Shown one piece after another: positions 50 to 38,214 of a stretch of 61,313 nt of DNA. The stretch is from Klebsiella pneumoniae. GTDB taxonomy: Bacteria; Pseudomonadota; Gammaproteobacteria; Ga0077536. The stretch spans positions 1-61,313 of the forward strand of contig CAMATU010000002.1 in assembly GCA_945861225.1 (NCBI GenBank), read 5' to 3'. A program made the position numbers and the translations under genes. Numbering within the stretch: the stretch's first letter is position 1; the number at the start of each line of letters is the position of its first letter. The notes under the pieces were generated by a model. That model searched no databases and was not told where the DNA came from. It saw nothing but the letters and a program-made list of their open reading frames with translations.

Positions 50-1441
50 GTGCTTTCGACGCAACCTGCCGAAAGCTATATCGATCCCTTCAGCAGCACA
101 AACAACGAAAATAACTCAGAATCTACCCACAGATTCCGCCGACGAGCCAAAAATTTAAACCAGCCCGTGCACGCGTACGCGATCAATCTGAACGATCTCT
201 CGGCGCAGCTGCCGTCAGCGAGCAGCGCTGCCGCGACGATTAGCGGGGTGCCAACGATTGCGGTGCTTCCGTTCGTTAATCTCTCAACGGACCCCGAGCA
301 CGAGTATCTCGTCGAGGGCATGACTGCTGATATTACGAGTGGGTTGTCCTGTGATTCTCGGTTTGCCGTCATTGCCCAAGGATCGGCGAATGCGTTCAAG
401 GGCGACACCCGCGATGTGACCGAGATCGGGAAATTACTTGCTACGAACTATGTTGTCACCGGCGCGGTGCGTCGACTTGGTGATCGTTTGCGAATAACCG
501 CAGCGTTGGTCGATGTCGCAACACGCAACGAAATCTGGAGTGCGCGCGAAGACCGCGAGTTGGCGGAAATTTTCGAGGTATTCGACGATGTAATTGAAGC
601 CCTGGTGACCGCGTTGGCTTCGCATCTGAAACTGGCCGAAGAGAAGCGGCATCGGCGTAAACCCCCCGAGCAGCTCGATGCGTGGGCGCTCACGGCACGC
701 GCTTCGCTGGCCTATTTCATCTCGGGATCAGTTTCGATCAAAGAGGGGCTGCCGATGGTTGCGCGCGCGCTTGAACTCGATCCCAATTATGCTTATGCGT
801 GGGCCGTTTATGGCTTCCTCACGGCATTGAAGTTCCCGATCGGTCTGAGTTCGGATCATGCCGCCGATGTCGAAACTTCGCTGGCCGCGACTCGCAAAGC
901 CTTGACCCTCGATCGCTACGATCCTTGGGTCCTCACGGCGCACGCCGCTGCGATGCAGTATGCCGGCCAGGCGCCAGAATCCCTTGGTTATCTCGAGCGA
1001 AGTTTGCGCGCGAATCCTAGCGAGGTGCTGACCCACTGCTACTACGGCAGGGGCTTAATGTTCTCCGGTGAGCCCGAACGTGCGCTCACCCATTTCGCAC
1101 GCTTCAAACGTCTCAATCCGACGGATCCAGGCGCACACATGGCCGCGATGTATCACGCGCTCGCGATAGTGTTCGCGCGCCGCTGGCCAGAGGCCGAAAG
1201 CATCGCGCGTGATGCGATTACGGCGGCGGGCGGCGGAAATCCTTGGTCGTGGACGGCACTCGCAATCGCGCTCGGTGCACTCGGGCGCGAAACAGAGGCG
1301 CGTGCCGCGATCGCCAACCTACTCCGACTCTCGCCACACTGGACCCGTCAGTTCGTAGAGACATTCTTTACGACCTGTCAGTCTGAGCAAAGCCTCGTGA
1401 CCCCCTTGCTCGACATTCTTCGCATCATCTGGCCGGACTAA
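50..1441 (+). CDS. TPR-repeat protein with N-terminal TolB-N-like domain (regulatory/periplasmic type)
   Basis: 463-aa ORF with a GTG start. The motif IAVLPFVNLSTDPEHEYLVEGMTADITSGLS is typical of the TolB-like domain found in front of TPR repeats, and the C-terminal half is TPR-like. Codon third positions are GC-rich. Confidence 0.6.
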   Translation: MLSTQPAESYIDPFSSTNNENNSESTHRFRRRAKNLNQPVHAYAINLNDLSAQLPSASSAAATISGVPTIAVLPFVNLSTDPEHEYLVEGMTADITSGLSCDSRFAVIAQGSANAFKGDTRDVTEIGKLLATNYVVTGAVRRLGDRLRITAALVDVATRNEIWSAREDRELAEIFEVFDDVIEALVTALASHLKLAEEKRHRRKPPEQLDAWALTARASLAYFISGSVSIKEGLPMVARALELDPNYAYAWAVYGFLTALKFPIGLSSDHAADVETSLAATRKALTLDRYDPWVLTAHAAAMQYAGQAPESLGYLERSLRANPSEVLTHCYYGRGLMFSGEPERALTHFARFKRLNPTDPGAHMAAMYHALAIVFARRWPEAESIARDAITAAGGGNPWSWTALAIALGALGRETEARAAIANLLRLSPHWTRQFVETFFTTCQSEQSLVTPLLDILRIIWPD

Positions 1442-1577: not shown

Positions 1578-1663
1578 CGCCTTTTCGATATTCAGGTCAG
1601 CGATCCACCGGCGGCGGACTATCATTGATACACTGCTAGCAATTTGTTGAGCGCGCGTTGACG

Positions 1664-2974
1664 ATGCCTGTACCCGAAGTCCCAACCCGCATCCGCTGGC
1701 GCATCATCGCGCTGATTTTCTTCGTTTACGTGTTGATGTTCATTGATCGCATCAACATCTCCATCGCCGCGAAATACATCATTCCAGAGTATGGGCTTAG
1801 CCAGGTCGAATTCGGCGCGATTTTCAGCGCATTCGTGTTGGCTTATGCGCTCGCCCAGATCCCGGGCGGCTGGCTCGGTGATCGCTTCGGTCCGCGCCGG
1901 GTCATGACCTGGGCCATTTTGTGGTGGTCGGCGTTTACTGCCGTCACCGCGATCGCGGGCGAGTTGGTCTTAGCCTCGACCTTGGGAGTGGTTGGCTCGT
2001 TCGCGGTGGTGCGCGCACTGATCGGTGTCGGCGAAGCAGCGGCGCCACCGAACGGGAGTCGCATGATCGCCAACTGGTCGGCACCGGCGGAGCGCGGACT
2101 CGCCTCGGGCTTTGCCATTAGCGGGAGTTCAATTGGTGGGGCGCTGACGCCGCCGCTGATCGTCTGGATCATGATTCATTGGGGGTGGCGCGAGGCGTTC
2201 TATATCACTGGTATCGCCGGAATCGTGGTCGCAGTCATCTGGTATTGGTTGACGACGGACACCCCATTGACCCATCCTCGGGTCAATTCCGCAGAGCGTG
2301 AAATTATCGATCCGGCACACAGCCGGTCTGCAGGGGCTTACGAGGCTTCGCGCAAAGTGCCGTGGCGGCGTCTGTTCGGGAGTCGGGATCTGTGGTTTCT
2401 GACAGGTGCCTATGCCGTCCTCGGGTACATCGTCTACTTCTACTTCGCGTGGTTCTATCTTTATCTCGTGAATGAGCGGGGCTTTTCGCTGGAGCTTGGC
2501 GGCATCTTTACCATGGCGCCGTTCCTGACGATGGCGGTCGCGAGTCCGCTCGGCGGCTGGCTCAGCGATAGCATCGGCCGGCGTTACGGTAAACGCTGGG
2601 GCCGCTCCGGGGTGGGCTGCATGGCGATGGTGCTGACTGGGATTTTTATTCTTCTCGGTGCGGCGACGGACAATGCAATCCTCGCGGTTACGTTGTTGTC
2701 CGCGAGTACCGGCATCCTGATGTTGAGCGTCGCGGCATTTTGGGCGACGACGATCGATTTAGCCGCTCGTTATGCTGGTACTGTCGCTGGCATCATGAAT
2801 ATGGGCGGCAACTTGGGCGGTACGATTTCACCGTCACTCACGCCGTATCTCGCGGAACATTATGGGTGGAACAGTGCGCTCTATGTGATGGGTGCACTCA
2901 GTCTGCTGGGGGCCGCGTTATGGCTCGGCGTGCGGCCGGCGCAGGAAATCGATTTCGACGCGGCACAGCGCTGA
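1664..2974 (+). CDS. MFS transporter (anion:cation symporter / ACS-like)
   Basis: About 436 aa and polytopic. The motif FIDRINISIAAKYIIPEYGLSQVEFGAIFSAFVLAYALAQIPGGWLGDRFGPRRV is a typical ACS-family MFS signature. The track ORF starts at TTG 1658; the ATG is at 1664. Confidence 0.85.
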   Translation: MPVPEVPTRIRWRIIALIFFVYVLMFIDRINISIAAKYIIPEYGLSQVEFGAIFSAFVLAYALAQIPGGWLGDRFGPRRVMTWAILWWSAFTAVTAIAGELVLASTLGVVGSFAVVRALIGVGEAAAPPNGSRMIANWSAPAERGLASGFAISGSSIGGALTPPLIVWIMIHWGWREAFYITGIAGIVVAVIWYWLTTDTPLTHPRVNSAEREIIDPAHSRSAGAYEASRKVPWRRLFGSRDLWFLTGAYAVLGYIVYFYFAWFYLYLVNERGFSLELGGIFTMAPFLTMAVASPLGGWLSDSIGRRYGKRWGRSGVGCMAMVLTGIFILLGAATDNAILAVTLLSASTGILMLSVAAFWATTIDLAARYAGTVAGIMNMGGNLGGTISPSLTPYLAEHYGWNSALYVMGALSLLGAALWLGVRPAQEIDFDAAQR

Positions 2975-3007
2975 CGTCGGGAAATTTAACGCGATAGGAG
3001 CAAAGCA

Positions 3008-3904
3008 ATGTCCGGCACTACACACCGTACCTCCATTAGCTATATTGACCGCACACGCGAGTATTACCACGCGCTGGGCTATGCGAAGCCTTACGTGTGG
3101 GCGCGCCACACGGACGCCGCTTTCGCCGCGCTTGCGAAGCCGCTGGCGCAGAGCCGGCTCGCCCTGGTAACTACCGCGAGCCCGTGGCGCGAAGACCAAG
3201 CTGCAGACGGCGCTCCGCGTGGCAGCAAGCGAGTGTGGTCGGGAGCGACCGAAGTGCCACCCGCGCGCCTGCACACGGAAGATCTCGCGTGGGACAAGGT
3301 GACCACCCACACGCGCGATGTGGAATCCTTCCTGCCCATTCGCCGCCTGCAAGAGGCAGTGGCAGCGCGGCGCATCGGAAGTCTTGCCGCCCGCTTCCAT
3401 GGCGTCCCGACGGATTACTCACAGCGCCGCACCATTGAACAAGATGTGCCTGAAATCCTCGCACGCTGCCGCGAAGATGAAGTTGATATCGCGCTCCTCG
3501 TTCCGCTCTGACCCGTCTGCCACCAGACCGTGAGTCTGGTCAGTCGCCACCTCGAGGAGAACGGAATCGCGACTGTCGTGATCGGCTCGGCGCGCGATAT
3601 CGTCGAGGAATGTGGCGTTGCGCGCTTTCTCTTCAATGATTTTCCGCTCGGCAATCCGTGCGGGAAGCCGTACGACGTTGAAATGCAACGCGCGATCGTC
3701 GGTCTGGCGCTCGATCTGCTGGAGAGCGCGTGGCTACCCCGCACGACCGTGCAGACGCCGTTCCGTTTCAGCGAAGAGGAGAGCTGGAAGCAAAACTATG
3801 CGCGGGTTGATCCTGCGCAGAGTGCGGAGCTGCTGCGTTTGGGTGAGCAACGTCGGAAACTCAGGGACAGTTTACCGATTACACCTGCAGTCTCCGACTC
3901 CTAA
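3008..3904 (+). CDS. GrdB/PrdB-family (selenoprotein B-like) reductase subunit, in-frame UGA 3509-3511 read as Sec168
   Basis: Track ORFs 3008-3511 and 3530-3904 are in the same frame and are separated only by one TGA. Read-through gives ...DIALLVPL-U-PVCHQTVSLVSRHLEENGIATVVIGSARDIVEECG.... There is an AGGAG RBS 8 nt upstream of the ATG, a hairpin just after the TGA, and selD in the same window. Confidence 0.75.
3517..3543 (+). promoter_or_regulatory. Candidate bacterial SECIS hairpin
   Basis: The structure is CUG-(CC bulge)-ACCAGAC-cguga-GUCUGGU-CAG. It starts 6 nt after UGA 3509-3511, and the apical loop contains GU. Confidence 0.5.
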
Positions 3905-7622: not shown

Positions 7623-8759
7623 TCAGATCGGCGTGAACCCCGCCTCACGCGGAAATCCCGCAATATCCGGTGGCGGGTAGTAGCGATCCGCGCCCAGCGC
7701 ATCGACTCTCGCGAAGAACTCTTCGTTGGCCGCGAAACCCATGGGTCCCAGCTCGCGCAGGTTCATCGCCTGGCGGTAGAGATTCCACGATTCGGGGTGT
7801 AAATCGCTCGCAGTTTTCAGGCACGCATCGCCTTCCGCTTCTTTGCCGTGCTGGCGCAGATAGAAGCCTAAACGGAAGTTGGCATTGGCGAGTGCGACAT
7901 TATCCGCCGGGAGTTCAAGATGCGCGCGCGCCTGTTCTGGCGTGAAGGCGTGCTTGCTCTTGGCGCCGTTGATGGCCCAATCGCGGACTGCACTCACATA
8001 GGTCTGTTGTGCCTTGGCGACAAGCGCGGCGGAGCCTTCCGGCACGCTGCGATCTTCACGGTTCATTGCGCGCCAGCCGTCGTGCGAGCCGGCGGTCTCA
8101 GCCGGGCGCACGATGTGACCTTCCTCGTCGATCCACACCGCCTGCGGCACATTGACCATGTTGTACAAATCCGCGACATGATGTTCGCGATCGATCAATG
8201 TCACATAGCCTGGCTTGGCAAGATCAATCCACTCGCGTGCAGTTTCATTGCCGCGGCTCTCTTCGGCCACCGCGATGATCATGAAATTCTGGTCTTTGAC
8301 TTCGTCGTACAGAGCCTGCCACACGGACAGGTCATAACGACAGCCTCACCAGGACGACCAGGTCGTCAGCAATACGCGCTTGCCACGATAATCAGACAAG
8401 GCATGCGACTTGCCGTCGATATCCGGCAGCCGGAAGTCCGGTGCGTCCAGCGTCTTAAGCGCATTCGCGCGATCACTTGCGCCCACCCCAAACAGCCAGG
8501 TATCACGGGCTTGATCGTGCAGCACCGGGCGACCCAATAACTTCCAAAACGCGGCGGCGTTAACGTCGTCGCCCTGCACAAAGGTCTCAGGTTTTTCACG
8601 GGGTACCGGCACGCACAGGTCGCCCTGGCACAGGCCTTCGGGTTTCAGGGTCCAGCCGAGCGCGCGTTCGATGTCGGGCTTGTTCAGCCACAGATCGTCG
8701 CCGCTGGCGCGCCCCGCTGCCACCATCGTGGCGCCGGCCTCGGTAAGTACGGTGAGCAT
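7623..8759 (-). CDS. Thioredoxin-fold (TlpA/ResA-like) selenoprotein, in-frame UGA (8346-8348) read as Sec138, plus helical C-terminal domain
   Basis: Track ORFs 8346-8759 and 7623-8324 are in the same frame. Between them is one TGA followed by GGC TGT CGT. Read-through gives RVLLTTWSSW-U-GCRYDLSVWQALYDEVKDQNFMIIAV, a CxxC redox motif with U at the first position. A strong AAGGAG RBS precedes ATG 8759. Confidence 0.75.
8304..8341 (-). promoter_or_regulatory. Candidate SECIS-like extended hairpin
   Basis: Minus-strand RNA folds as GUCGU-UAU-GACCUG-uccgugugg-CAGG(C)UC-UGU-ACGAC, starting 7 nt after the UGA. It was folded by eye and is imperfect. Confidence 0.35.
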
Positions 8760-8821: not shown

Positions 8822-11044
8822 TCAGGTGGCGACCAACACAGTGCCGATAACCGTTGCCGCTTTACAGTCGGCCGCACGCAGCGCCGCAAGACATTGCGCG
8901 ACCTGCCGCGCCGGCACCGCGAGGAGCAACCCACCCGATGTCTGCGGATCAAACAACAACGGATAACGCAGCGGAAACTGCGCGTGGTCGCTAATGGTTA
9001 AATGCGCGTCCAAACGCTCGTTGTGTTGATGGAGCGTACTGCGGATACCCGCCTCGACCATTTCGCACGCGCCAGCCAGTACGGGCAGCGCGCCGAGCGT
9101 TATTTCCGCCCGCAAGCCCCCGCGCCGAAGCATCTCGCTGAGATGACCGGCCAATCCGAAGCCCGTCACATCCGTCATCGCATGCACTTCGAAGGCCTCG
9201 ACGGCGCGCGCGGCGGGGCCGTTGGTCGCGACCATGTGTTCGAGCGCGTAATCCAGCCAGGCGCTGTGCGCGAGCCGCCGCATGGCGCCAGCCAGGACGA
9301 CGCCGCTACCGAGGGGTTTGGTCAGGATCAGGCAATCTCCGGCGCACAGAGCGTCCTTAGCCCTTAACTGATCGCGCGCGACATGGCCGTTAATCGCGAA
9401 GGCCAGCGACAATTCAGCCCCTTCACTGGTGTGACCACCGACCAGTGCAGTCCCTTCTTGCGCGAAGACCGCACTGGCGCCGGCCAGCAGCAGCGCCAAA
9501 TCACGGCGCACCATGGCCGGCGCGGCGAGCGGCAAGGTGACATAGGCCAGTGCCGATTGCGGCTGCGCGCCCATCGCGAAAATATCGGACAGACAATGGG
9601 CGGCAGTAATCTGGCCGAAGACATAGGGATCGGACACGAACGCGCGAAAGCCATCGATGGTATGCACCGCAAGGCGCCCTCGCGGCAACTCGGTCACTGC
9701 CGCATCGTCGCGGCCGCCAAGGCCCACGATGATGTCCGCACGCGGCGCCGCCGGCAGTTCCCGCAAGGCCTCGGCGATGATTTCCGCGCCGACCTTGGCG
9801 CCGCAACCGCCGCAGCGCATTGCTTGCGGACCGAGCGCTGCAATCTCGCGCGCCAAGGCGGCCGGTACAGGCGTCGCGGCGTGCGTCATCACTGGCAGGT
9901 GTTGGTACTTGCGCATGAAGCGACGATCAATCCAGTCTTTCCAACGCCATACCCAGGCGCCGCTCAAGCGCCAATTGCCGCGTGAGGCGACGGCTGACTT
10001 CGCGCCGGTGGAAATCAGACTCAGCGCGTCGCGTTGTGGACGATGGTCGCGAAGTGCTTCTCCGCGACAGGCACGGCGCAGATTTTCCGCCAGCGCTGGC
10101 CCTTGGCGCACCGCATATACGCCAGACTTAGGCCGCGGCGCGCCATCAATCGTTGCGCAGTCACCTACCGCGAAAATCTGCGGATGGGAGACCGAACGCA
10201 GATTATTGCCGACGCGGATATAGCCCGCCGCATCGACCGCGAGACCCGCCTCCGCGAACCACGGGGCAGCAGCGGCGGTAGTCACCCACAACACTTCATC
10301 GAGCCAAAAGCGCGCGCCGCTTTGCGCGTGGACTGCGTCCGGCTCGACGCGCACGATGCGCTGTCCGGTGTGTACCAGGATGCCCTGCGCGGCAAGCACG
10401 CGGGCGAACGTGTCGCGGGTGCGGCGATTATGGGCCGGCAGTACCTCGGTGGTCGCAGTGAACAAGTGAAACTCAAGATGTGCGGCGCTGCGTCCAGTGG
10501 CCGCGAGTTCGCCAAGCAGACGATGGCGAACGGCGAGGATTAGCTCAACCCCCCCTGCGCCGCCACCCACCACTCCCACCTTAAGCGGGCTGTTGCTCGC
10601 CAATACGCGCGCGTGCAGCGCCAGCCAGCGCACATTGAACTCATCGATCGGCTTTACCGGTGTTACGTTCGGCGAGATCTCGGGCAGATCTGCGAGTGAT
10701 GGCGTGGAACCCGCATTGATCGAGAGCAGATCAAATTCGAGCGGTGGCCGACCGCGACACAGCACACGCCGTGCAAGGATATCGAAACCTACCACTTCGG
10801 CCTGGATGAAGCGGGCCTGGGCGAATTCGGCCAGTGCCCGTAAATCGAAATGCATTTCATCGGGTTGGTAATGACCGGCGATAAGCCCTGGCAGCATGCC
10901 GGAATAGGGCGATTGGCTGGCGCGGCTGAGCAAGGTCAAACGTACCCCGGGTAACGGTTGCATGCCAAAGCGCTTCAATACGGCTAGATGACTGTGGCCG
11001 CCGCCGATGAGGACGAGATCTTTAACGACGGGTTGGGTTAGCAC
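8822..11044 (-). CDS. selD: Bifunctional FAD-dependent pyridine nucleotide-disulfide oxidoreductase / selenide,water dikinase (SelD fusion, Cys-type)
   Basis: The N-terminal half has DLVLIGGGHSH and GVVGGGAGGVE Rossmann motifs. The C-terminal half has RCGGCGAKVG ... GRDDAAV ... HTIDGFRAFVSDPYVFGQITAAHCLSDIFAMGAQP, which are SelD signatures. GTG 11044 (MLTQPVVKDLVLIGGG) is the likely start; the track start 11215 overlaps the divergent gene. Confidence 0.85.
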   Translation of the reverse strand: MLTQPVVKDLVLIGGGHSHLAVLKRFGMQPLPGVRLTLLSRASQSPYSGMLPGLIAGHYQPDEMHFDLRALAEFAQARFIQAEVVGFDILARRVLCRGRPPLEFDLLSINAGSTPSLADLPEISPNVTPVKPIDEFNVRWLALHARVLASNSPLKVGVVGGGAGGVELILAVRHRLLGELAATGRSAAHLEFHLFTATTEVLPAHNRRTRDTFARVLAAQGILVHTGQRIVRVEPDAVHAQSGARFWLDEVLWVTTAAAAPWFAEAGLAVDAAGYIRVGNNLRSVSHPQIFAVGDCATIDGAPRPKSGVYAVRQGPALAENLRRACRGEALRDHRPQRDALSLISTGAKSAVASRGNWRLSGAWVWRWKDWIDRRFMRKYQHLPVMTHAATPVPAALAREIAALGPQAMRCGGCGAKVGAEIIAEALRELPAAPRADIIVGLGGRDDAAVTELPRGRLAVHTIDGFRAFVSDPYVFGQITAAHCLSDIFAMGAQPQSALAYVTLPLAAPAMVRRDLALLLAGASAVFAQEGTALVGGHTSEGAELSLAFAINGHVARDQLRAKDALCAGDCLILTKPLGSGVVLAGAMRRLAHSAWLDYALEHMVATNGPAARAVEAFEVHAMTDVTGFGLAGHLSEMLRRGGLRAEITLGALPVLAGACEMVEAGIRSTLHQHNERLDAHLTISDHAQFPLRYPLLFDPQTSGGLLLAVPARQVAQCLAALRAADCKAATVIGTVLVAT

Positions 11045-11177
11045 GCGTAGCCGACACTGATTACCGAAGGTGGACTGTAGCGGACCCGCGGCCCTGCCCC
11101 AACCCCTACATTTATCCCGGCACCTGACGCCCTCGGGTACACTGCGGGGCATCAGCCTGTTCAGTTGGAGACTACCG

Positions 11178-11837
11178 ATGGATCTCGCAAGCCTTACCCA
11201 CCGCCTCGCGGCCATCGAAACCTCTCACCTGGCGGATGCCAACAAAGCGATCCGCCTGATGGACCCTGGTCTGCGACCACTGCATGCAGGGCGCAAGCTT
11301 ATTGGACGTGCTTTTACGCTCACCTGTCACGAGGATTTCATGACCGTGATGGTGGCGCTCAAGGAGGCTGAAGCGGGTGATGTGCTGGTGATCGATACCC
11401 GTGGCAGCCGGCGTGCGGTACTCGGCGAGCTGTTCAGTCTGGAAGCGCAACGGCGCGGCTTGGCGGGCATTATTGTCGATGGCCCCGTGCGGGACACGGT
11501 GACACTCCGGACGCTCGAGATCCCAATTTACGCGCGCAGCACAACCCCGCTTGCGGGCACCATCCAACAGCTTTCCCCGGTGCAGCAACCCGTGCAGTGC
11601 GGTGGAGTCACCGTCAACCCAGGCGATATGGTGTTTGGCGATGAGGATGGGATTATTGTCGCGAGCGCCGCCGAGCTCGCAGCGCTGTTGCCAGCAGCCG
11701 AAGAAATCGAGGCGCGTGAACGGGCCGTGATTGCGCGCCTGCAAGCCGGTGAGAGCTTGTTATCGATGCTCAATTTCGAGGAGCATCGGGCTAATCTGAT
11801 GGCCGGGCGCGAGAGTGCTTTGCGTTTTCTGACTTGA
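11178..11837 (+). CDS. RraA family protein (RNase E regulator / HMG-aldolase-like)
   Basis: Motifs GDVLVIDTRGSRRAVLGELFSLEAQRRGLAGIIVDGPVRD. ATG 11178 has a GGAG RBS. Confidence 0.8.
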   Translation: MDLASLTHRLAAIETSHLADANKAIRLMDPGLRPLHAGRKLIGRAFTLTCHEDFMTVMVALKEAEAGDVLVIDTRGSRRAVLGELFSLEAQRRGLAGIIVDGPVRDTVTLRTLEIPIYARSTTPLAGTIQQLSPVQQPVQCGGVTVNPGDMVFGDEDGIIVASAAELAALLPAAEEIEARERAVIARLQAGESLLSMLNFEEHRANLMAGRESALRFLT

Positions 11838-18012: not shown

Positions 18013-18687
18013 CTAGCCGAGCGTTGCATCCTCGTCACCTTGGGACGGCACGAGCCAATGCCAGAACCCGGTGGCGCAGAACGCGCCTAGCAACTGTGCA
18101 ATCACGAAGCCACCTACATCACCAGGCCGAATACCGGCAAAGGTATCGCTGGCGGCGCGGGCGAGGGTCACTGCTGGATTGGCGAAGGAAGTGGAGGCGG
18201 TAAACCAGTAGGCAGCGGTGATGTAAGCGGCGACCAGGTAAGGCAGCGCGGCGAGGCGTTGTCTGAGGCACGCCCAAATCACACTCAACAAACCGAAGGT
18301 CGCGACGAATTCGCTCCACCATTGCGCAGCGCCGCTGCGGATGTGCGTGGCGGCCAGGAACAGGGGTTCCTGAAACATTAAGTGGGCTGCCGCGACTCCG
18401 GCGAAGGCGCCGAGGAGTTGCGCCAGCAAGTAGGGGACTACCTCGCGCCAGTGATGTTGATTGCGGCTGGCGAGTGCCAGGGTGACCGCCGGATTGAAAT
18501 GCGCGCCGGACACCGGACCGAAGATTACGATTAACACCGTCAGCATGCAGCCGGTGGCGAGGCTGTTCGCAAGCAGGGCGAGCGCGACGTTACCTTCCGC
18601 CAGACGCTCACCCATGATGCCAGAGCCGATCACGGTGGCCAGCAGCAAGCCCGTACCCAGCGCTTCGGCCGCGAGGCGGCGCCTCAT
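18013..18687 (-). CDS. MIP-family channel (aquaglyceroporin-like, ars-associated)
   Basis: Two NPA boxes (HFNPAVTLA and FANPAVTLAR). ATG 18687 lies just downstream of the arsI stop; the track start 18810 overlaps arsI. Confidence 0.8.
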   Translation of the reverse strand: MRRRLAAEALGTGLLLATVIGSGIMGERLAEGNVALALLANSLATGCMLTVLIVIFGPVSGAHFNPAVTLALASRNQHHWREVVPYLLAQLLGAFAGVAAAHLMFQEPLFLAATHIRSGAAQWWSEFVATFGLLSVIWACLRQRLAALPYLVAAYITAAYWFTASTSFANPAVTLARAASDTFAGIRPGDVGGFVIAQLLGAFCATGFWHWLVPSQGDEDATLG

Positions 18688-18721
18688 AGGCGCCGCGACT
18701 GCGCTGCGCGAAGTGGTGTAC

Positions 18722-19264
18722 TTAACAGCAAGATTTAGTGGCCGGGGCAGCGACTTTAGTCTGCGGTCCGCAACAGGCAGCCGTGACTGGGATCGCAGCC
18801 AGGGTTTCATTCGCCTGGGTCGCCGCCATGCGCGGTGTGCAACAAGCGCCAGTACTCACGTCCTCGCCTGCGGTTTGGCGTTGATCGCCGCCAAACACCG
18901 GCACCGAGCCTAGAGTATGGAAGGTTTCCCACGCGATCCCGGTGGGATCGGTGACCCAGTATTTGTCGGAGCGAGCGTAGCAACAGGCAGTGTTCTCTTC
19001 CGTCAGCAGATTGGCATCGGCGGCCGACAATTGCGCCTGCATGCCCGACAAATCGCTCGCGGAGTCGACCTGGAAGCCCAGATGGTCGATCCCACTGCGC
19101 TTATCACCCTGGCGCGAAATCGCGAAATTGACGCGCGGATCTTCCAGCATCCACTTCGCGTAGTCGGGCTTTTCCACACTCGGCGCGTGGCCGAAAATAG
19201 TCGAGTAAAAGCGGATGCTTTGGGCAAGATCAGCGACCGCCACATGGACATGAAAACGTTTCAT
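18722..19264 (-). CDS. arsI: ArsI/CadI-family glyoxalase-fold metalloenzyme (C-As lyase-like)
   Basis: MKRFHVHVAVADLAQSIRFY... HLGFQV ... vicinal cysteines in NTACCYA. The C-terminal tail is Cys-rich. The start overlaps the arsR stop (ATGA). Confidence 0.7.
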   Translation of the reverse strand: MKRFHVHVAVADLAQSIRFYSTIFGHAPSVEKPDYAKWMLEDPRVNFAISRQGDKRSGIDHLGFQVDSASDLSGMQAQLSAADANLLTEENTACCYARSDKYWVTDPTGIAWETFHTLGSVPVFGGDQRQTAGEDVSTGACCTPRMAATQANETLAAIPVTAACCGPQTKVAAPATKSCC

Positions 19265-19590
19265 GAGAGGACTCCTTGAATAGACAGCGGGGGACAACAG
19301 GCGCCATCGCGCGCGCAGCAGTTTTCAGTCAGAAAGCCGATCAGGGCGTTCATCTGCGCAAAATTTGCCGCGTAGAAGATGAAGCGCCCGGCCTGGCGTG
19401 AGGTGATTAATTCCGCGCGTGCGAGTTCCTTGAGATGGAACGAAAGGGTTGCCGGGGAGGTCTGCAACGCACAGCCAATCTCGCCTACCACCCGCCCGGT
19501 GGGACCGGCCTCAATCAACATCCGGAAGATCTTGAGGCGGGTGTCCTGGGCCAGGGCGGCAAGAGCGACTAAGGCGTGATTCGATTCCAT
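19261..19590 (-). CDS. arsR: ArsR/SmtB family transcriptional repressor
   Basis: The wHTH region is LAQDTRLKIFRMLIEAGP...VGEIGCALQTSPATLSFHLKEL. C-terminal Cys cluster NCCARDGACC. Confidence 0.85.
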   Translation of the reverse strand: MESNHALVALAALAQDTRLKIFRMLIEAGPTGRVVGEIGCALQTSPATLSFHLKELARAELITSRQAGRFIFYAANFAQMNALIGFLTENCCARDGACCPPLSIQGVLS

Positions 19591-22106: not shown

Positions 22107-23186
22107 TTACGTTTCCAACGGCACGCCATTATCCACCAGCACTCTGCGTAGCCCGCGGATCGCCGGAAAAATTTCCTGATTGCGATCTTCACCCTGGGCA
22201 TCGAACGCCGCCTGTTCGAGTTCGCAAATCCAACGGTCCTCACCGAAAATTCCATTCGTGAACCACACGATCGCCGGCCATAGCAGATTGATGAGACCAG
22301 GCATCGACGGCCGTTTAATCATCATCAGGCCGTAGGTGTGATTGGTACGTTGCGCCTGATCGAGCGGAATGTAGATATTCCACAAATCCAGTGCCGGCGT
22401 GGGGCTACCTGCCGTCCAGAACTTGAGCGTTTGGTAGGGATACTCAGTGCGAATCGTCATCAGATCGCGTTCATCGGGTTGCGACTCGGGACGTTTGCCG
22501 AGCATGAACTTTTCGCCCAGGGGTTGCTTACCTTCATTGCGCTTGAAGGTGTAGTCCGCTTCGATCCAGTTATCACCGCTGCGCACGCCGAGGAATATCG
22601 TCTTGATTCCGCCCATCAGCCGCCGATGCAGGAATTGATGATTCATGTCCATCAAGTTCTCGTGCATGAAGGTGTAATGGCAGTTGATACGGCGACTGAG
22701 ATAGCGCGTCTTGTAGTCTGGATTAGTCGCGGAGGGCACGTCCGGGAAGGCGACGATAGTGGCCTTGGCACTGTCACCCGGAAACACGAAAATGAGCCCA
22801 TAGGCTTCGCGGCAGGGATACGCCCGCACATTGTTCGGGCGCATGCTGGCGTGATCGAGATAGGGCACGCTGGTGCAGTGGCCTTGTTCATTGTAGGTCC
22901 AGCCGTGATAACCACACTTGATCCCATCCGCCAGGACTTCGCCGACGTGTAACGGCACTTGGCGGTGCGCGCAACGGTCTTCGAGTGCGAACACCCGTCC
23001 CGCCTTGCCACGCACCAGCACTATTGGCGCACCAGCGAAGGTCGCTGGATGCGCCTTGCCTGGTTTCACTTCCTTGCTATGGGCAATCGGATACCAGAAG
23101 TCGGGATCGATGCCGGTCTTGCGAATGTCTCGTTTCAGCGGTTGTGCGTCGCCGCTGGGCAGACGTGCTGTGTTATCGGCGGTCAT
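22107..23186 (-). CDS. Rieske [2Fe-2S] non-haem-iron oxygenase, alpha-subunit-like
   Basis: The Rieske motif is CAHRQVPLH...CGYHGW. The Fe motif is HENLMDMNHQFLH. ATG 23186 is preceded by AAGGAC; the track start is 23243. Confidence 0.8.
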   Translation of the reverse strand: MTADNTARLPSGDAQPLKRDIRKTGIDPDFWYPIAHSKEVKPGKAHPATFAGAPIVLVRGKAGRVFALEDRCAHRQVPLHVGEVLADGIKCGYHGWTYNEQGHCTSVPYLDHASMRPNNVRAYPCREAYGLIFVFPGDSAKATIVAFPDVPSATNPDYKTRYLSRRINCHYTFMHENLMDMNHQFLHRRLMGGIKTIFLGVRSGDNWIEADYTFKRNEGKQPLGEKFMLGKRPESQPDERDLMTIRTEYPYQTLKFWTAGSPTPALDLWNIYIPLDQAQRTNHTYGLMMIKRPSMPGLINLLWPAIVWFTNGIFGEDRWICELEQAAFDAQGEDRNQEIFPAIRGLRRVLVDNGVPLET

Positions 23187-23286
23187 GGACGTCCTTGCGC
23201 GATCAAGAGGGGGCTTCGACCGCATTATAGTGCTGGCCTGCACACAATCGCCTAGCGAAACCCCATTTTTGCTTGACCCAGCGCAA

Positions 23287-23751
23287 TCAGAACACGCCCG
23301 CTTCCAAGCCCGCCGCCAGCGTCTGGCCGAGCTCCGTGCAGGCCGCGAGATGGGCCTCGGTGAGTTCCCCTTTGGCGATTACAGGCGGTATCACCGCCCG
23401 CCAGCGCAAGCCGAGCGTCAGACGTTCGACCGCGGTTTGCGCGCCCAGGCCATCGTTGCCGGCACGAATGAACAGGCCATACGGCAGGCCTTGCGTGTGC
23501 TCAAGACAGGGATAGTAAATTTGATCGAAAAAATATTTGAGTGCGCCAGACATATAGCCGAAGTTCTCCGGCGTGCCGAGCAGGATCCCGGCCGCACTGT
23601 GGACCTCCGCCGCAGTGGCCACCAACGCCGCACGCACGCACACTTCGATACCGCGAATTTCCGGATCACGCGCGCCGGCCACCACCGCATCCAGCATGCG
23701 CTGGGTGCCGCCGGTCGCAGAGTGATAGACGATCAAAAGGCGCTTGGTCAT
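23287..23751 (-). CDS. Flavodoxin-like fold protein
   Basis: MTKRLLIVYHSATGGTQRM; 154 aa. Confidence 0.7.
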   Translation of the reverse strand: MTKRLLIVYHSATGGTQRMLDAVVAGARDPEIRGIEVCVRAALVATAAEVHSAAGILLGTPENFGYMSGALKYFFDQIYYPCLEHTQGLPYGLFIRAGNDGLGAQTAVERLTLGLRWRAVIPPVIAKGELTEAHLAACTELGQTLAAGLEAGVF

Positions 23752-27124: not shown

Positions 27125-27322
27125 TATACGCACGTGAATGTGTCAAGGCGTTAGCAGTAACCACGTGGCAAGTTAAAGTCAGTGCCGTTTAGCGACGCTA
27201 AAAAGCCCATAGACCTTCGCCCGGGACGCGGTTGAGCGATGCGAACCCTTGAACTTGATCGCTATAATTTGCGGCGCCGCGTTCCGTCGGCACCGCAACT
27301 CGCAAGGCCGGTCCTCTCGCTC

Positions 27323-28813
27323 ATGCCCCATTCAGCTCCCATCGCGGCCATTGATCTTGGCTCCAACAGTTTTCACTTGGTGGTGGCTGAACCCCAGAAC
27401 GGCCACTTCAAAGTGCTCGACCGTCTGCGGGAAGTAACCCGTCTGGCCTCCGGCATGGATGCTGACAGCCGCCTGACTGATGTTGCGATGGAGCGCGCAC
27501 TGGCCAGCATGCAACGTTTTGGTGAGCGAATTCGACACCTGCCACAGGAGGCAGTGCGCGCGGTCGGCACCAATGCACTGCGCCGTGCGCGTAATGGCCA
27601 ACCCTTCTTACGGCGCGCCGAAGCCGCGCTCGGGCATCCGATCGATGTAGTGTCCGGAATTGAAGAGGCCCGTTTGATCTACCTCGGGGTGTCGCACGGG
27701 CTTGCCGAAGACAGTGGCTTGCGGCTCGTAATGGATATCGGCGGCGGCAGTACCGAGCTCATCATCGGCCAACGGCATCAGCCAATCGCGATGGAAAGCC
27801 TGTATATGGGCTGCGTGAGCATGACCGAACGCTACTTCGGTGACGGACGGATTGATGCCAAGCGCCTGCGCACTGCCGAGATCGCCGCCCGGCAGGAATT
27901 TGAACCGATTGAAGAGGCCTTTCGAAGCCGTGGCTGGCAGGCTGCGATCGGCGCCTCGGGGAGTCTACTCGCGATTGCCGATGCGCTTGCCGCCCACGGG
28001 TGGAGTGAAGAGGGCATCACACGGGCCGGCTTACAGAAATTGCGCGCGGCGTTGATCGATCTGGGCCAGGTCAGCGAACTGGCGCGCTTTGGTGTGCGCG
28101 AAGATCGCTGTCCGGTGTTCGCCGGTGGTTGCGCGATTGCGCTCGGTGCGTTTGAAGAACTCGGCATCGAGCGCATGCAGGTTTCGGACAGCGCGTTGCG
28201 AGAAGGCGTGCTCTACGATCTCATGGGACGTATTCATCATGAGGATGTGCGCCAGCACACCGTCAACATGCTCGTGCAACGCTTGCAGGTTGATCGCGGA
28301 CAACTTGCGCGGGTCGCCGCGACGGCGAAGAATTTATTGGAGCAAGCGGCGGCGAATTGGGGTTTACATGGTGCGGAACATCTGCAGCTCCTGCATTGGG
28401 CTAGCTGCCTCCACGAAATCGGCTCGACGGTGTCGCATTCGCAGTACCACAAGCATGGCGCCTACCTGCTGCAGTACCTTGATATGCCGGGCTTCTCGCG
28501 CGGCGAGCAGCGCCAATTGGCCTTTCTGGTGCGCGGCCACCGCCGCAAGTTCCCGCTGGTTGAATTGACGGCGTTGACCGATGCCGAGCAGGCAATCTGT
28601 CGTCGACTGTGCGTGCTGTTGCGCTTGGCGGTGGTACTGCACCGTGCGCGTCGAGCGACTTCTCTGCCGAGATTCGAACTGACCGTGGAGGGCGATTTGC
28701 TTAGATTAGTGCTGCCGAAAGGCTGGCTCGACGAACATGCGCTAGTGGCGGCGGATCTTGCGCAGGAAGCGAGTTATTTAAAGGCCATTGGCCTGCGCTT
28801 GAAGTTTAAATAA
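27323..28813 (+). CDS. ppx: Exopolyphosphatase / pppGpp phosphohydrolase (Ppx/GppA family)
   Basis: IAAIDLGSNSFHLVV, DIGGGSTE, and a C-terminal HD-like region. ATG 27323; the track start is 27239. Confidence 0.85.
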   Translation: MPHSAPIAAIDLGSNSFHLVVAEPQNGHFKVLDRLREVTRLASGMDADSRLTDVAMERALASMQRFGERIRHLPQEAVRAVGTNALRRARNGQPFLRRAEAALGHPIDVVSGIEEARLIYLGVSHGLAEDSGLRLVMDIGGGSTELIIGQRHQPIAMESLYMGCVSMTERYFGDGRIDAKRLRTAEIAARQEFEPIEEAFRSRGWQAAIGASGSLLAIADALAAHGWSEEGITRAGLQKLRAALIDLGQVSELARFGVREDRCPVFAGGCAIALGAFEELGIERMQVSDSALREGVLYDLMGRIHHEDVRQHTVNMLVQRLQVDRGQLARVAATAKNLLEQAAANWGLHGAEHLQLLHWASCLHEIGSTVSHSQYHKHGAYLLQYLDMPGFSRGEQRQLAFLVRGHRRKFPLVELTALTDAEQAICRRLCVLLRLAVVLHRARRATSLPRFELTVEGDLLRLVLPKGWLDEHALVAADLAQEASYLKAIGLRLKFK

Positions 28814-28845
28814 GCACACAGCTTTCGCGCGCATTCGAGACCATG

Positions 28846-29109
28846 GTAGGAGCGGCTTCAGCCGCGATGGGATGCTTGATACGACGCATGCCTCTCACTT
28901 TCCATCGCGGCTAAAGCCGCTCCTACCGGCGGACTGGTCATAGAACTCATAGGGCGGAAAAGCGCAGCGCTTTTCCGCCGCATGCCGACATCAGATTCCG
29001 GCATCCCGGGCGAAGACCCGGGATCCATGTGTGCTTGGGGTAGAGGATGGATGACGAGGTTTAGGAGGTAGCCTCATGCGGCGGAAGGCGCTGCGCTTTT
29101 CCGCCCTAT
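28846..29109. repeat. Mosaic repeat array: A(+), A(-), B(+), C, B(-)
   Basis: Family A at 28846-28871 and 28902-28926, family B at 28948-28984, family C at 28998-29026, and an inverted family B at 29075-29109. The array fills the convergent ppx/ppk spacer. Confidence 0.85.
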
Positions 29110-29145
29110 TTGGGCTATTTAGACCGCACTTTCCCGCTTTTATCG

Positions 29146-31218: not shown

Positions 31219-31320
31219 CTTCGATGAGACTCTTGCAACCTGACGGTGTTTCGCAGACTACGCAGACTGTTAAGATGCGCCGCCTGATTTCATTCAAGTA
31301 TAACGAGGAAAATCATTGAA

Positions 31321-32163
31321 ATGCGCGCTACTCGAACTGTCCCCGTCACGCCCCGTCGGCCAGCCACGCGTACGCAAGCAGAGCGCGCGGATCGCCACAA
31401 TTTGTACGAACGTTCGGTGCAGGATGCGGCGGCCGAAGTCGATTTCGTCACCCGCGAGTACCAACGGCTGCGTGGGCGCAATGCGCGTTTTCTGCGCGAG
31501 GATTTCTGCGGCACGGCCAGTGTCGCGACCACCTGGGTGCGCCGTCACCGCCAGCATCGCGCAATCGGCGTGGATCTCGATCCGTCGGTCCTGGCGTGGG
31601 GCGAGGCCCATCATGTAAGCAAGCTCTCGCGCGGCGAGCGCGGGCGTCTGACCCTGCTTAACGAAGATGTCATGCAGGCGAAGTCGCCACCGCAGGACGT
31701 ATTGCTCGCGATGAATTTCAGTTATTGGATCTTCAAAACACGCACCGCGCTGCGTGATTATTTTCGCGCCGCACACCGCGCCTTGGCCGCTGACGGCATG
31801 TTCATGCTCGATTGTTACGGCGGTTACGACGCTTTCCGTGTCCTTAAGGAGAAACGCGAGTTGCGCGGTTTCACCTATGTGTGGGATCAGGCGAGCTATA
31901 ACCCCGTAAACGGCGATCTGCGCTGCCACATCCATTTCCAAATGCCTGATCGCTCCTGGCTTAAGGAGGCATTTACCTATGATTGGCGGCTGTGGACGCT
32001 GCCGGAAATTCGCGAAGTGCTGGCAGAGGCGGGCTTTGCGCGTTCCATTGTGTACGGCCAGGGCTGGGATGCGGAGCAGCAGGATGGCGATGGTGATTAC
32101 CAGCCGATTGAAACGGCGGATCCGGACGCTGGCTGGATTGTGTATGTGGTGGCGCTCAAATAG
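31321..32163 (+). CDS. Class I SAM-dependent methyltransferase
   Basis: FLREDFCGTASV (motif I-like), AIGVDLD, DGMFMLDCYGG. The antisense 297-aa ORF is rejected. Confidence 0.75.
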   Translation: MRATRTVPVTPRRPATRTQAERADRHNLYERSVQDAAAEVDFVTREYQRLRGRNARFLREDFCGTASVATTWVRRHRQHRAIGVDLDPSVLAWGEAHHVSKLSRGERGRLTLLNEDVMQAKSPPQDVLLAMNFSYWIFKTRTALRDYFRAAHRALAADGMFMLDCYGGYDAFRVLKEKRELRGFTYVWDQASYNPVNGDLRCHIHFQMPDRSWLKEAFTYDWRLWTLPEIREVLAEAGFARSIVYGQGWDAEQQDGDGDYQPIETADPDAGWIVYVVALK

Positions 32164-32180
32164 GGTGGAGTGCAAGCGAA

Positions 32181-32198
32181 TCGTCATCTACTTGTCAC
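32181..32198 (+). promoter_or_regulatory. Pho box (PhoB site) upstream of pstS
   Basis: tCGTCATctacTTGTCAC is two 7-bp direct repeats with an 11-bp period, matching CTGTCAT-N4-CTGTCAY. It lies about 50 bp upstream of the pstS GTG, which has an AAGGAG RBS. Confidence 0.55.
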
Positions 32199-32246
32199 AA
32201 TTGGGACCAAGAATAGCCGGTGACATTCATATAAAGGAGAAGCAGT

Positions 32247-33260: not shown

Positions 33261-33410
33261 CGCCTTGGTCCGCGCGGCAGCGCGGGGCTGAACAACCGCG
33301 CGGCGGCTTCCTTTCAGTCGGCGCGCGGTCATAATGCACCGCAGTTCGCAAGGGCAGATGCGCCGCGCGAGATCCCTCGCTGACCCGAAAAGCCAGATGC
33401 CGGAAACCCA

Positions 33411-38198: not shown

Positions 38199-38214
38199 CA
38201 CAGGAATCCACCCC

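Follow-up and report, generated by a model that had tools for sequence, protein, structure and literature searches.

The open reading frames at positions 3008–3511 and 3530–3904 constitute one gene, not two short ones, within the window, the whole 61,313-nucleotide (61-kb) stretch of DNA analyzed here (Table 1). The explanation of this gene in which we place high confidence is that it encodes a single selenoprotein of the PrdB/GrdB superfamily, in which UGA168 would be read as selenocysteine (Sec) by means of a SECIS element, and which would represent an orphan clade other than the proline and glycine reductases.

Table 1. Features of the selenoprotein locus and of its surroundings in the window.
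Feature	Position	Strand	Details and basis
TPR protein gene	50–1441		
MFS transporter gene	1658–2974	+	same strand as selenoprotein gene
Shine–Dalgarno-like AGGAG	2996–3000	+	ATG 7 nt downstream; read from sequence
PrdB-like selenoprotein CDS (predicted)	3008–3904	+	complete, 298 residues/codons; ATG 3008, TAA 3902–3904; translation, profile match, homologs
UGA codon, residue 168, predicted Sec	3509–3511	+	first position of U-P-V-C redox motif; alignment with homologs
Cys171 codon TGC	3518–3520	+	probable resolving cysteine of UxxC, followed by His172; alignment
Predicted bacterial SECIS element	3517–3543	+	lower pairs 3517–3519/3541–3543; CC bulge 3520–3521; 7-bp upper stem 3522–3528/3534–3540
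Apical loop CGUGA	3529–3533	+	G at position 2, then U; 17 nt past UGA; sequence and 116 Sec-forms
Second in-frame-TGA gene, ResA-like WAxxUGC	7623–8759	-	NF041054, 284 bits; TGA 8346
Ndh-SelD fusion gene	8822–11215	-	TIGR00476, 283 bits (cutoff 125)

One reading frame across an internal UGA

The two open reading frames lie in a common frame, their offset of 522 nt being equal to 174 × 3, and upon translation from 3008 the TGA at codon 168 is the sole in-frame stop ahead of the terminal TAA. Read-through yields the product ...DIALLVPL-U-PVCHQTVSLV..., which contains a U-x-x-C motif, and the peptide carrying U168 would be …LLVPL-U-PVCHQTVSLVSR. A preliminary description of this DNA had already joined the split pair into one gene with such a motif, and the frame, the single internal TGA, and the position of Sec168 were all reproduced by translation. 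The gene starts 33 nt past the stop of the MFS gene, a gap that makes co-transcription possible; a scan for promoters and terminators at the locus returned counts at the chance level. The same TGA is found in an independent assembly (L001), which argues against a sequencing error as its source.

More than 3500 full-length homologs of ~290 residues were retrieved. The preliminary description had proposed inspecting the column aligned with the TGA for Sec or Cys, and this column holds Cys without exception, in 24/24 and in 61/61 full-length homologs (PL-C-PVCHQT). Neither Cys171 nor His172 varies, whether within the orphan clade or in canonical PrdB. The same TGA occurs in at least 120 species-level genomes, which span many phyla, and all 120 loci with the TGA motif are true orthologs that align over both halves, with 120–139 open codons after the TGA in 103 of them.

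Gene callers end the protein at the TGA (P0001), and among the best 150 representative clusters 66 end exactly there, being Sec-truncated, with 23 in the Cys-form. These endings fit a TGA that is a real stop, either in a pseudogene created by a TGY→TGA nonsense change or between split genes for products of 167 and 124 residues, the hairpin then being a by-product of the encoded peptide. Such a stop is nevertheless highly improbable. The TGA is kept across all of these genomes, and conservation among the TGA-bearing orthologs is stronger downstream than upstream (median identity of 62% for the post-UGA half versus 49% for the pre-UGA half). The GTG at 3530, from which the second open reading frame was taken to begin, is Val175; it falls within the hairpin loop and has no Shine–Dalgarno sequence of its own. 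In addition, each of the two fragments would be without an essential catalytic residue.

The hairpin downstream of the UGA

In the hairpin, ACCAGAC pairs with GUCUGGU to form the upper stem, and CUG pairs with CAG in a lower extension that begins at the sixth nucleotide after the UGA. The bSECIS model (PMC13188914) describes an apical loop of 3–9 nt, an upper stem of 4–16 bp, a G within the first two loop positions, a UGA spacing of 16–37 nt, and a minimum free energy of ≤ −7.5 kcal/mol. Every one of these ranges includes the hairpin, which has a 5-nt loop with G at position 2, a 7-bp stem, a spacing of 17 nt, and a minimum free energy of −14.2 kcal/mol upon folding of 3509–3550. Folding had been suggested as a check in the preliminary description, and its outcome is divided: the energy is within the bSECIS limit, but single-sequence folding against shuffles gives z-scores of −0.48 (71 nt) and −1.45 (42 nt), which are not significant. 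Because these z-scores are at the chance level, the proof of the hairpin was taken from comparative analysis. An Rfam search at gathering and permissive thresholds returned neither a SECIS nor any other family.

Across 116 TGA-bearing orthologs (Sec-forms), 96% of the stem cells are paired, compared with at most 33% when the partner is slid. All seven upper-stem pairs are intact in 88/116 Sec-forms versus 3/76 Cys-forms, where the Sec set derives from genomes and the Cys set from metagenomes, the 5′ arm of the stem is partly fixed by the search pattern (alike for both sets), and the statistics ignore phylogeny. Two of the lower pairs are kept in the family (112/116 and 99/116), and the third is paired in 25/116. 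Covariation in the Sec-forms is observed at two places: CAG→CAA accompanies CTG→UUG ([[95,4],[2,15]], p=1.8e-13), and CAC→CAU accompanies GUC→AUC ([[84,8],[5,14]], p=1.2e-8), the second of which forces Val to Ile. Neither covariation appears in 76 Cys-form controls, whose encoded peptide is the same (p=1.0). The loop reads CGUGA in 92/116 Sec-forms versus 15/76 Cys-forms. Where the Sec-forms have Ser at position 176, its codon is AGU in 98/98 cases, compared with AGC in 68/76 Cys-forms. Fixed synonymous sites (AGU, GUG, and ACC) are found in TGA-bearing genes only. Taken across the orthologs, structure and covariation bear out the SECIS-like hairpin of the preliminary description, including its loop and CUG/CAG extension, and point to a SECIS that is under selection specifically in UGA-bearing genes.

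The Cys-forms retain six of the seven potential pairs in 50/76 cases, with Ser encoded by AGC and not TCN, which means that the codons for H-Q-T and S-L-V by themselves impose some of the complementarity. This retention and the weak z-scores would fit a true stop with a by-product hairpin; the stem covariation and the synonymous sites fixed in TGA-bearing genes only stand against it. A “fossil SECIS” in the Cys-forms was also considered and was set aside, since it is not separable from codon-family inertia and amino acid constraint.

Selenium-related genes in the window

The MFS and TPR genes had been described as the only neighbors of the PrdB-like gene. Both assignments are correct, but the Ndh-SelD fusion and the second in-frame-TGA gene, located 4–7 kb away, had been overlooked. 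The WAxxUGC gene has a hairpin of its own, with a CGUGU loop 20 nt past the UGA, and a scan of the window for further TGA-split genes gave two candidates only, at 3509 and 8346. The nearby Ndh-SelD fusion and WAxxUGC selenoprotein point to the host, an uncultured and probably myxobacterial organism, as a likely Sec user, and the host presumably contains the Sec-decoding machinery (SelA, SelB, and tRNA-Sec). Within the 61-kb window, tRNA, Rfam, and Pfam/NCBIfam scans located selD and found no selA, selB, or tRNA-Sec.

The lack of selA, selB, and selC in the window would suit a UGA that is read through without Sec, whether by a reassigned code (Trp or Gly) or by near-cognate suppression with Cys or Trp; a Trp does occupy the column in one canonical PrdB homolog (P0121), where it is a gene-caller artefact. 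This type of decoding is scarcely credible, given that TGA terminates 12 of the 30 well-supported genes in the window and that the neighborhood includes a SelD gene and a gene of a known selenoprotein family whose hairpin matches. The hairpin itself fits the SelB-type bSECIS model and appears to be under selection, and homologs have Cys without exception at the aligned position, the hallmark of Sec/Cys exchange.

Comparison with PrdB and GrdB

The window protein matches nearly the whole of the PrdB profile TIGR04483 (E=8.6e-24, positions 17–233 of 238), at 84.3 bits versus the 300-bit equivalog cutoff. A search with PF07355 (GRDB) gives no match at E≤1, although 120/120 authentic PrdB sequences retrieved carry this domain, and TIGR01918 scores 18.4 bits versus a cutoff of 65.45, over profile positions 267–422 only. 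The earlier assignment to a GrdB/PrdB family is thus sound at the level of the superfamily, but the two models that were named for it, PF07355 and TIGR01918, do not recover the protein.

Similar to PrdB (for example, that of Clostridioides difficile), the window protein has a predicted UGA-encoded Sec with a SECIS just downstream, and the two share the motifs P-I-x-R-L-x-E, R-x-x-E-x-x-G-I-x-T, P-x-G, and E-M-Q. Sec168 aligns with C/U151 of authentic PrdB, followed by x-x-Cys-His, and U151 of C. difficile PrdB is catalytic (PMC11229817). By this alignment, Sec168 occupies the position of the catalytic Sec151 in the D-proline reductase subunit PrdB. The main differences between the two proteins are the identity of only 24–26%, the length (298 residues versus 241 in PrdB), an aromatic-rich N-terminal segment (Y12, Y20, Y29, and W31) and a C-terminal helix of ~45 residues in the window protein, and the replacement of the GFMGGGG motif of PrdB by VPT[E/D]YSQ. 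The window gene is monocistronic, in a variable context, and has no adjoining prdA, prdH, or prdC. Finally, the hosts of the clade are for the most part not Stickland fermenters but aerobic Proteobacteria, Acidimicrobiia, Myxococcota, and others. Sequence comparison accordingly places the window protein as a distant relative of PrdB in a separate, monocistronic orphan clade.

GrdB, GrdF, and GrdH (TIGR01918, TIGR01917, NF040794, and NF040795) show weak, consistent homology in the Sec-bearing C-terminal ~150 residues (profile positions ~267–423 of 431–435, E 2e-05 to 3e-03), and a UxxC redox motif is common to both. Unlike the ~430-residue architecture of GrdB, the window protein is without the ~260-residue N-terminal part, and it falls below every GrdB-type cutoff. 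The motif of GrdB is UxxCxxC (PMC13188914), compared with UxxCH-Q-T (U-P-V-C-H-Q-T) in the window protein, and no grdA, grdE, or grdC/D is near the window gene.

Profile scans for PrdA, PrdH, PrdC, GrdA, GrdE, and GrdC/D found none of them in the 61-kb window, in agreement with the preliminary description. The neighbors in the window were further searched against 240 loci, and the flanking open reading frames of 198 orthologous loci were grouped de novo, once with a strict and once with a loose threshold, the clusters being named by Pfam. Among the recurrent neighbor clusters of the 198 loci there is no conserved partner and none of Prd or Grd type. The top neighbor family is present in only 10–16 of the 198 loci, and 141/198 have no same-strand open reading frame within 100 bp. 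Guilt by association with neighbors was rejected as a route to function, there being no conserved partner across loci. An MFS-like neighbor occurs in at most 16/198 loci, mostly of one Cys-form group, and no ortholog of the window's own MFS transporter adjoins the orthologous loci; the suggestion that the protein acts on an MFS-imported substrate finds little comparative support.

A less likely possibility is that the protein is a canonical Stickland-type subunit (of D-proline, glycine, sarcosine, or betaine reductase) and that the genes for its pyruvoyl partner (PrdA/GrdE) and for its electron-transfer partners lie in other parts of the genome. The full-length homology to the PrdB profile and the retention of the catalytic Sec-x-x-Cys-His would agree with such a role, as would the names “D-proline reductase PrdB” and “glycine reductase” that the JGI and NCBI pipelines give to homologs. 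This role is judged unlikely, as the preliminary description had also concluded, because no Prd or Grd partner gene is present in the window; canonical prd and grd genes are operonic (PMC11229817, PMC13188914). In the prd cluster, PrdB is encoded together with PrdA, a pyruvoyl proprotein, and with PrdH and PrdC, and the active complex is built from these partners. The low profile score, the missing PF07355 match, the altered motif, and the extra terminal segments also weigh against it, and the hosts are largely of aerobic lineages, such as Bradyrhizobium, Reyranella, Pseudohongiella, and Acidimicrobiia. Given the distance to PrdB, the lack of Prd/Grd partners, and the lack of a conserved neighbor, the orphan selenoprotein encoded in the window is probably not a D-proline reductase.

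Predicted fold and chemistry

Structural information comes from an AlphaFold model (pLDDT 81.8, pTM 0.85) of the ~290-residue Cys homolog P0002, which is 60% identical to the window protein. The model is Rossmann-like with seven strands, and Cys167 caps the N terminus of helix 168–183 after strand 160–164. By extension from this homolog, the window protein is predicted to adopt a Rossmann-like α/β fold with Sec168-Pro-Val-Cys171-His172 at a helix N-cap directly after a β-strand. A PDB sequence search and a Foldseek search against the PDB yielded no relative at a significant level (best E 0.017, TM 0.30), and therefore no function was transferred on the basis of fold. Marginal local matches were obtained to Thioredoxin_3 (E=0.14) and to the DsbG-like PDB chain 3tdg (E=0.047). 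Similar to Trx-like, Prx-like, and DsbA-like selenoproteins, the protein would have a redox-active U/C-x-x-C at the N terminus of a helix that follows a β-strand, whereas its predicted overall fold, with seven strands and Rossmann-like, is not that of thioredoxin. Since the similarity is local and non-significant, it describes a possible working mode and not family membership; by analogy, selenenyl-sulfide cycling as in the Trx-fold UxxC/CxxC oxidoreductases is probable.

In the proposed mechanism, UGA 3509–3511 would be recoded as Sec during translation, the hairpin serving as bacterial SECIS and bringing in SelB-GTP-Sec-tRNA(Sec), and the Ndh-SelD fusion, whose gene is 5 kb away, would supply selenophosphate. 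The Sec168 selenolate may attack an electrophilic center of the substrate, and Cys171 may resolve the adduct to a selenenyl-sulfide that would be re-reduced by a cellular dithiol system. A relay of three residues, Sec168/Cys171/Cys218, was considered too, but no more than about 61/107 Sec-forms have Cys218 (GNPCG), so it was dismissed as a general mechanism. As a member of an orphan clade without a linked pyruvoyl-protein partner (PrdA/GrdE), PrdH/PrdC, or GrdA, the protein would work alone or with unlinked partners, and it is most probably neither a D-proline nor a glycine reductase.

Implications for the family

Selenoproteins with a UxxC motif that are labeled PrdB have been catalogued from aerobic environmental bacteria since 2005 and rank near the top in abundance among the selenoprotein families of the Sargasso Sea and GOS metagenomes (Zhang, Fomenko and Gladyshev 2005, PMC1088965; Zhang and Gladyshev 2008, PMC2398784). 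Sec-forms outnumber Cys-forms by 42:1 in the Sargasso Sea (PMC1088965) and by 235:110 in GOS (PMC2398784), and Sec-forms also predominate here (66:23 in the best 150 clusters). Many TGA-bearing orthologs belong to metagenome-assembled genomes (MAGs) of marine Gamma- and Alphaproteobacteria and Acidimicrobiia; with these hosts, the motif, and the family label in common, the Sargasso/GOS “PrdB” and the window clade are very probably the same clade. The window gene would then add one member to an already catalogued group of PrdB-type UxxC selenoproteins. In the passages cited here, the two papers handle the family as PrdB without setting apart an orphan clade lacking PrdA, and the GOS table lists the family with pfam07355 (PMC2398784), a domain whose current Pfam version leaves the window protein unmatched. 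Within the papers covered, a literature search for an orphan or PrdB-like clade found no dedicated paper, and the family has no dedicated Pfam or NCBIfam model, solved structure, or conserved operon.

For annotation, two hypothetical open reading frames become one selenoprotein gene, and in public databases at least 66 of the best 150 representative clusters contain this error as well. The current family names, “D-proline reductase PrdB” and “glycine reductase”, are probably wrong. The comparison of Sec-forms with Cys-forms amounts to a clean experiment done by nature on the constraints that a SECIS places on a coding sequence: synonymous sites are fixed, and a His codon is coupled to the choice between Val and Ile. 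The family is widespread, with the Sec-form in at least 120 species-level genomes, thousands of Cys-form proteins, and a high rank in ocean selenoproteomes.

Opinion is evenly balanced on a further claim drawn from these comparisons, that the clade is no subunit of a proline or glycine reductase but a stand-alone, partner-independent seleno-oxidoreductase with a distinct substrate, abundant in aerobic ocean and soil bacteria. If so, the clade would have been hidden because its Sec-forms are called as truncated open reading frames of ~165 residues and its Cys-forms are mislabeled. Activation of the substrate, which in Stickland reductases falls to the pyruvoyl protein PrdA, would be taken over by the aromatic-rich N terminus, the VPT[E/D]YSQ motif, and the C-terminal helix, and the protein would rank near the top in abundance among the selenoproteins of aerobic bacteria in the ocean and in soil.

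Conservation of the in-frame UGA

The two open reading frames at 3008-3511 and 3530-3904, joined in the preliminary description into a single selenoprotein gene, share a frame in the window sequence, and the TGA at 3509-3511 (codon 168) is the sole stop between the ATG at 3008 and the TAA at 3902-3904. On read-through, the product continues across this codon as DIALLVPL-U-PVCHQTVSLV. With U replaced by Cys, the 298-residue product matches the NCBIfam PrdB model TIGR04483 (E = 8.6e-24, profile positions 17-233 of 238), and homologs retrieved from the database number more than 3500; most have about 290 residues and 55-62% identity, and all span the TGA position. As anticipated for a Sec/Cys column, the residue aligned with the TGA is Cys, in the motif PL-C-PVCHQT, in every aligned homolog.

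A scan of one genome per species with a back-translated L-U-P-V-C-H-Q-T pattern yielded at least 120 matches versus the ~17 that we estimate would occur by chance. All 120 listed matches are true orthologs, with 33-79% identity and alignable on both sides of the TGA; their hosts belong to the Gamma-, Alpha-, Beta-, and Deltaproteobacteria, Myxococcota, Acidimicrobiia, Dehalococcoidia, Binatia, Tectomicrobia, Spirochaetales, and Anaerolineae. Median identity among these 120 is 62% in the half following the TGA versus 49% in the half preceding it, and 120-139 open codons lie 3' of the TGA in 103 of the loci. A pseudogene, a sequencing error, and reassignment of the code are excluded for practical purposes, since the TGA is conserved in at least 120 orthologs, TGA is the normal stop of 12 of the 30 well-supported genes in the window, and a second, independently made assembly from this organism (L001) has the TGA as well. 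These comparisons show that UGA168 is translated.

A bacterial SECIS element downstream of the UGA

The hairpin 3' of the UGA, earlier described as SECIS-like, has a minimum free energy of -14.2 kcal/mol (3509-3550). As a single sequence, it shows no significant advantage over shuffled sequences (z = -0.48 and -1.45), and the case for a bacterial SECIS (bSECIS) was therefore made comparatively. Because the hairpin region lacks indels, 116 Sec-forms (orthologs with TGA at the residue 168 position) could be stacked in codon register; Cys-forms (homologs with a Cys codon there), found by the same pattern with TGY replacing TGA, served as a control (78 confirmed homologs, 76 usable). The search pattern partly fixed the 5' arm of the stem, to the same extent in the two sets, which were drawn from different collections. 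Subject to this, the upper stem retains its full seven pairs in 88 of 116 Sec-forms versus 3 of 76 Cys-forms (Fisher p = 2e-25, kinship ignored), and the CGUGA loop is present in 92 versus 15. The codon at the Ser176 position is always NGU in Sec-forms, being AGU in all 98 that carry Ser and GGU or UGU in the remainder; it is AGC in 68 of 76 Cys-forms.

Two compensatory changes are observed in the Sec set, Gln CAG to CAA with Leu CUG to UUG ([[95,4],[2,15]], p = 1.8e-13) and His CAC to CAU with Val GUC to Ile AUC ([[84,8],[5,14]], p = 1.2e-8); the Cys-forms show neither association (p = 1.0 each). Because CAA/UUG is seen in Gammaproteobacteria, in several Alphaproteobacteria, and in Acidimicrobiia, this state arose more than once. 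The paired fraction in the Sec set is 0.96 in register versus at most 0.33 with the 3' partner slid by 1-3 nt. The bSECIS model comprises a 3-9-nt loop on a 4-16-bp upper stem, a spacing of 16-37 nt, a G within the first two nucleotides of the loop with G or U after it, and a minimum free energy of at most -7.5 kcal/mol (PMC13188914), and the element at 3517-3543 displays all four properties. In the three-pair lower extension proposed with it, two pairs are conserved (112 and 99 of 116 Sec-forms) and one is not (25 of 116). The comparative evidence shows the SECIS to be under selection.

In the Cys-forms (L122-L241), six of the seven potential stem pairs are kept in 50 of 76 sequences across the region equivalent to 3522-3540, and the Ser codon is AGY in 71 of 73 and TCN in 2 of 73, with AGC used. 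This pairing may be left over from an ancestral SECIS, or it could reflect codon-family inertia combined with amino acid constraint. Repeated exchange of Sec and Cys in the family is suggested by 6 of 107 Sec-forms, whose nearest neighbor is a Cys-form (~70% identity).

Relationship to PrdB and GrdB

A probe search recovered authentic proteins bearing the name PrdB, of 241 residues, from sources including Clostridium botulinum, C. sporogenes, and Sporolactobacillus, all with PF07355. In a joint alignment, U168 falls exactly in the C/U151 column of authentic PrdB and is followed by an invariant x-x-Cys-His. In Clostridioides difficile PrdB, U151 is the catalytic Sec, which attacks C-alpha of D-proline on the PrdA pyruvoyl group, and active D-proline reductase requires PrdA, PrdB, and PrdH (PMC11229817). 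The shared column thus shows that Sec168 is homologous to the catalytic Sec of Stickland reductases.

Membership in PrdB proper was rejected (84 bits versus the 300-bit cutoff of TIGR04483), and PF07355, the profile named earlier, has no match in the window protein. Identity to authentic PrdB is 24-26%; VPT[E/D]YSQ stands where PrdB has GFMGGGG, and the protein has an extra aromatic-rich N terminus and a C-terminal helix of ~45 residues. GrdB-type models give weak matches, confined to their C-terminal 150 residues, and the UxxCxxC motif of GrdB is absent.

Predicted fold and conserved residues

A Cys homolog with 60% identity was modeled confidently by AlphaFold (pLDDT 81.8, pTM 0.85) and adopts a seven-stranded alpha/beta fold. 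Its Sec-equivalent residue lies directly after strand 160-164 and caps the N terminus of helix 168-183, so that the Sec of UxxC occupies a helix N-cap. No solved structural relative was returned by sequence or fold searches. Near-invariant positions in 108 diverse Sec-forms are Y12, Y20, G24, Y29, W31, T56, D104, P110, Y137, S138, U168-T174, R180, E183, D197, R206, P213-G215, G219, Q227, W254, and W260, although the search pattern itself accounts for part of the invariance of the 167-174 block. A third Cys, in a GNPCG motif, was rejected as a universal catalytic residue because only ~61 of 107 Sec-forms have it.

Gene neighborhood and proposed mechanism

As stated in the preliminary description, the 61-kb window contains no Prd/Grd or thioredoxin reductase partner; PrdA, PrdH, PrdC, GrdA, GrdE, and thioredoxin reductase are all absent from it. 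No neighbor of the gene in the window recurs as an ortholog beside it at ~200 other loci (E < 1e-10), among them the genes for SelD, the Prx-like protein, the M20 peptidase, the His-phosphatase, and the MFS transporter; the TPR, SDR, and methyltransferase neighbors have scattered matches only. De novo clustering of flanking ORFs gave a top family at 10 of 198 loci (strict) or 16 of 198 (loose), the loose cluster being MFS-like and made up mostly of the window and a single group of Cys-form loci. The recurrent flanking clusters are mixed (alpha/beta-hydrolase, CoA-transferase III, TPR, MFS, AraC, VOC, HpcH aldolase, GST), and at 141 of 198 loci no ORF on the same strand lies within 100 bp. The context is thus variable and the gene in essence monocistronic, and the earlier idea of a substrate imported by the MFS neighbor finds at most weak support.

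Recoding of UGA168 would be SelB-dependent. The Sec168 selenolate would attack the substrate, Cys171 would resolve the adduct to an Se-S bond, and a dithiol system would recycle this bond. The enzyme would operate without a pyruvoyl partner, so that its substrate would differ from D-proline or glycine.

Other loci in the window

Features of the window
Feature	Position	Strand	Basis
AGGAG box	7 nt 5' of ATG 3008	+	Sequence
Lower extension CUG/CAG across CC bulge	3517-3519 / 3541-3543	+	Sequence
Upper stem, 7 bp, ACCAGAC/GUCUGGU	3522-3528 / 3534-3540	+	Sequence
Apical loop CGUGA	3529-3533	+	Sequence
Second split ORF pair, one gene, single in-frame TGA 8346-8348	7623-8759	-	Motif TTWSSW-U-GC
Pyridine-nucleotide-disulfide oxidoreductase-SelD fusion, 797 aa	8822-11215	-	NCBIfam profiles
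MIP/aquaglyceroporin	18013-18810	-	
Glyoxalase/VOC-family protein	18722-19297	-	
ArsR-type HTH regulator	19261-19590	-	
Rieske/VanA-like oxygenase and partial FMN-reductase ORF	22107-23751	-	
Ppx/GppA	27239-28813		
Polyphosphate kinase	29146-31218		
PstS-like binding protein	32247-33260		
Two PstC/PstA-type permeases, unusually long (750 and 551 aa)	33411-37318		
PhoU	38122-38937		
[2Fe-2S] and molybdopterin-binding subunits, xanthine-dehydrogenase/aldehyde-oxidase-type enzyme	39193-41878	+	
Two PhoD phosphatases	47575-49212 and 51766-53436		
PhoX	56386-58779		

The SelD fusion scores 467 bits with TIGR03169 "Nterm_to_SelD" (cutoff 310) and 283 bits with TIGR00476 selD (cutoff 125), scores under the cutoff of TIGR04369 "fusion_not_SelD," and has a SelD active site of the Cys-type CxxC form (RCGGCGAK). 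It is an Ndh-SelD fusion of the type reported as common in aquatic bacteria (PMC2398784). Located 5 kb from the PrdB-like gene, it directly adjoins the second split gene, which has AhpC/TSA matches on both halves, scores 284 bits with NF041054 "ResA-like WAxxUGC motif-containing protein" (just below the 300-bit cutoff), and carries, 20 nt past its UGA, a hairpin (z = -2.25) whose CGUGU apical loop is similar to CGUGA in the PrdB-like gene. This gene very probably encodes a second selenoprotein. A systematic scan of the window revealed no additional TGA-split genes, and selA, selB, and tRNA-Sec are not found within it.

The regions 27239-38937 and 47575-58779 form a dense phosphate-scavenging, Pho-regulon-like neighborhood. 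The ArsR, VOC, and MIP genes lie in tandem on one strand and may constitute a metalloid (arsenite/antimonite) response cluster; their start codons need revision, given overlaps of 37-89 nt between the ORFs as called. The Pfam match of the partial FMN-reductase ORF begins at profile position 63, and its N terminus may be mis-called.

The closest of the listed orthologs derive from MAGs labeled Deltaproteobacteria or Myxococcota (L005, 79%; L058, 75%; L044, 69%), and one window protein weakly matches the myxobacterial gliding protein CglD, which together suggest a Myxococcota origin for the host.

A known selenoprotein family and its annotation

A UxxC "proline reductase PrdB" was the third most abundant selenoprotein family in the Sargasso Sea (42 Sec, 1 Cys; PMC1088965) and among the top families in the GOS survey (235 Sec, 110 Cys; PMC2398784). 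The N-terminal half of the product matches 764 representative clusters; among the best 150, 66 stop exactly at the Sec position and 23 are full-length Cys-forms, in agreement with both surveys. The selenoprotein family is thus already known, and the window gene is an additional member. Recognition of the clade as distinct from true PrdB and lacking PrdA was not found in the literature searched, and neither Pfam-A nor NCBIfam has a model for it; this novelty is modest and concerns annotation.

In those 66 clusters (P0241-P0389 set), gene calling halted at the Sec-UGA, so that the ORFs end in ...[P/A]L; the Sec column reads W in one canonical PrdB entry (P0121) and R in one Spiroplasma PrdB (P0180). 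These entries point to systematic mis-annotation of the family in public protein databases.
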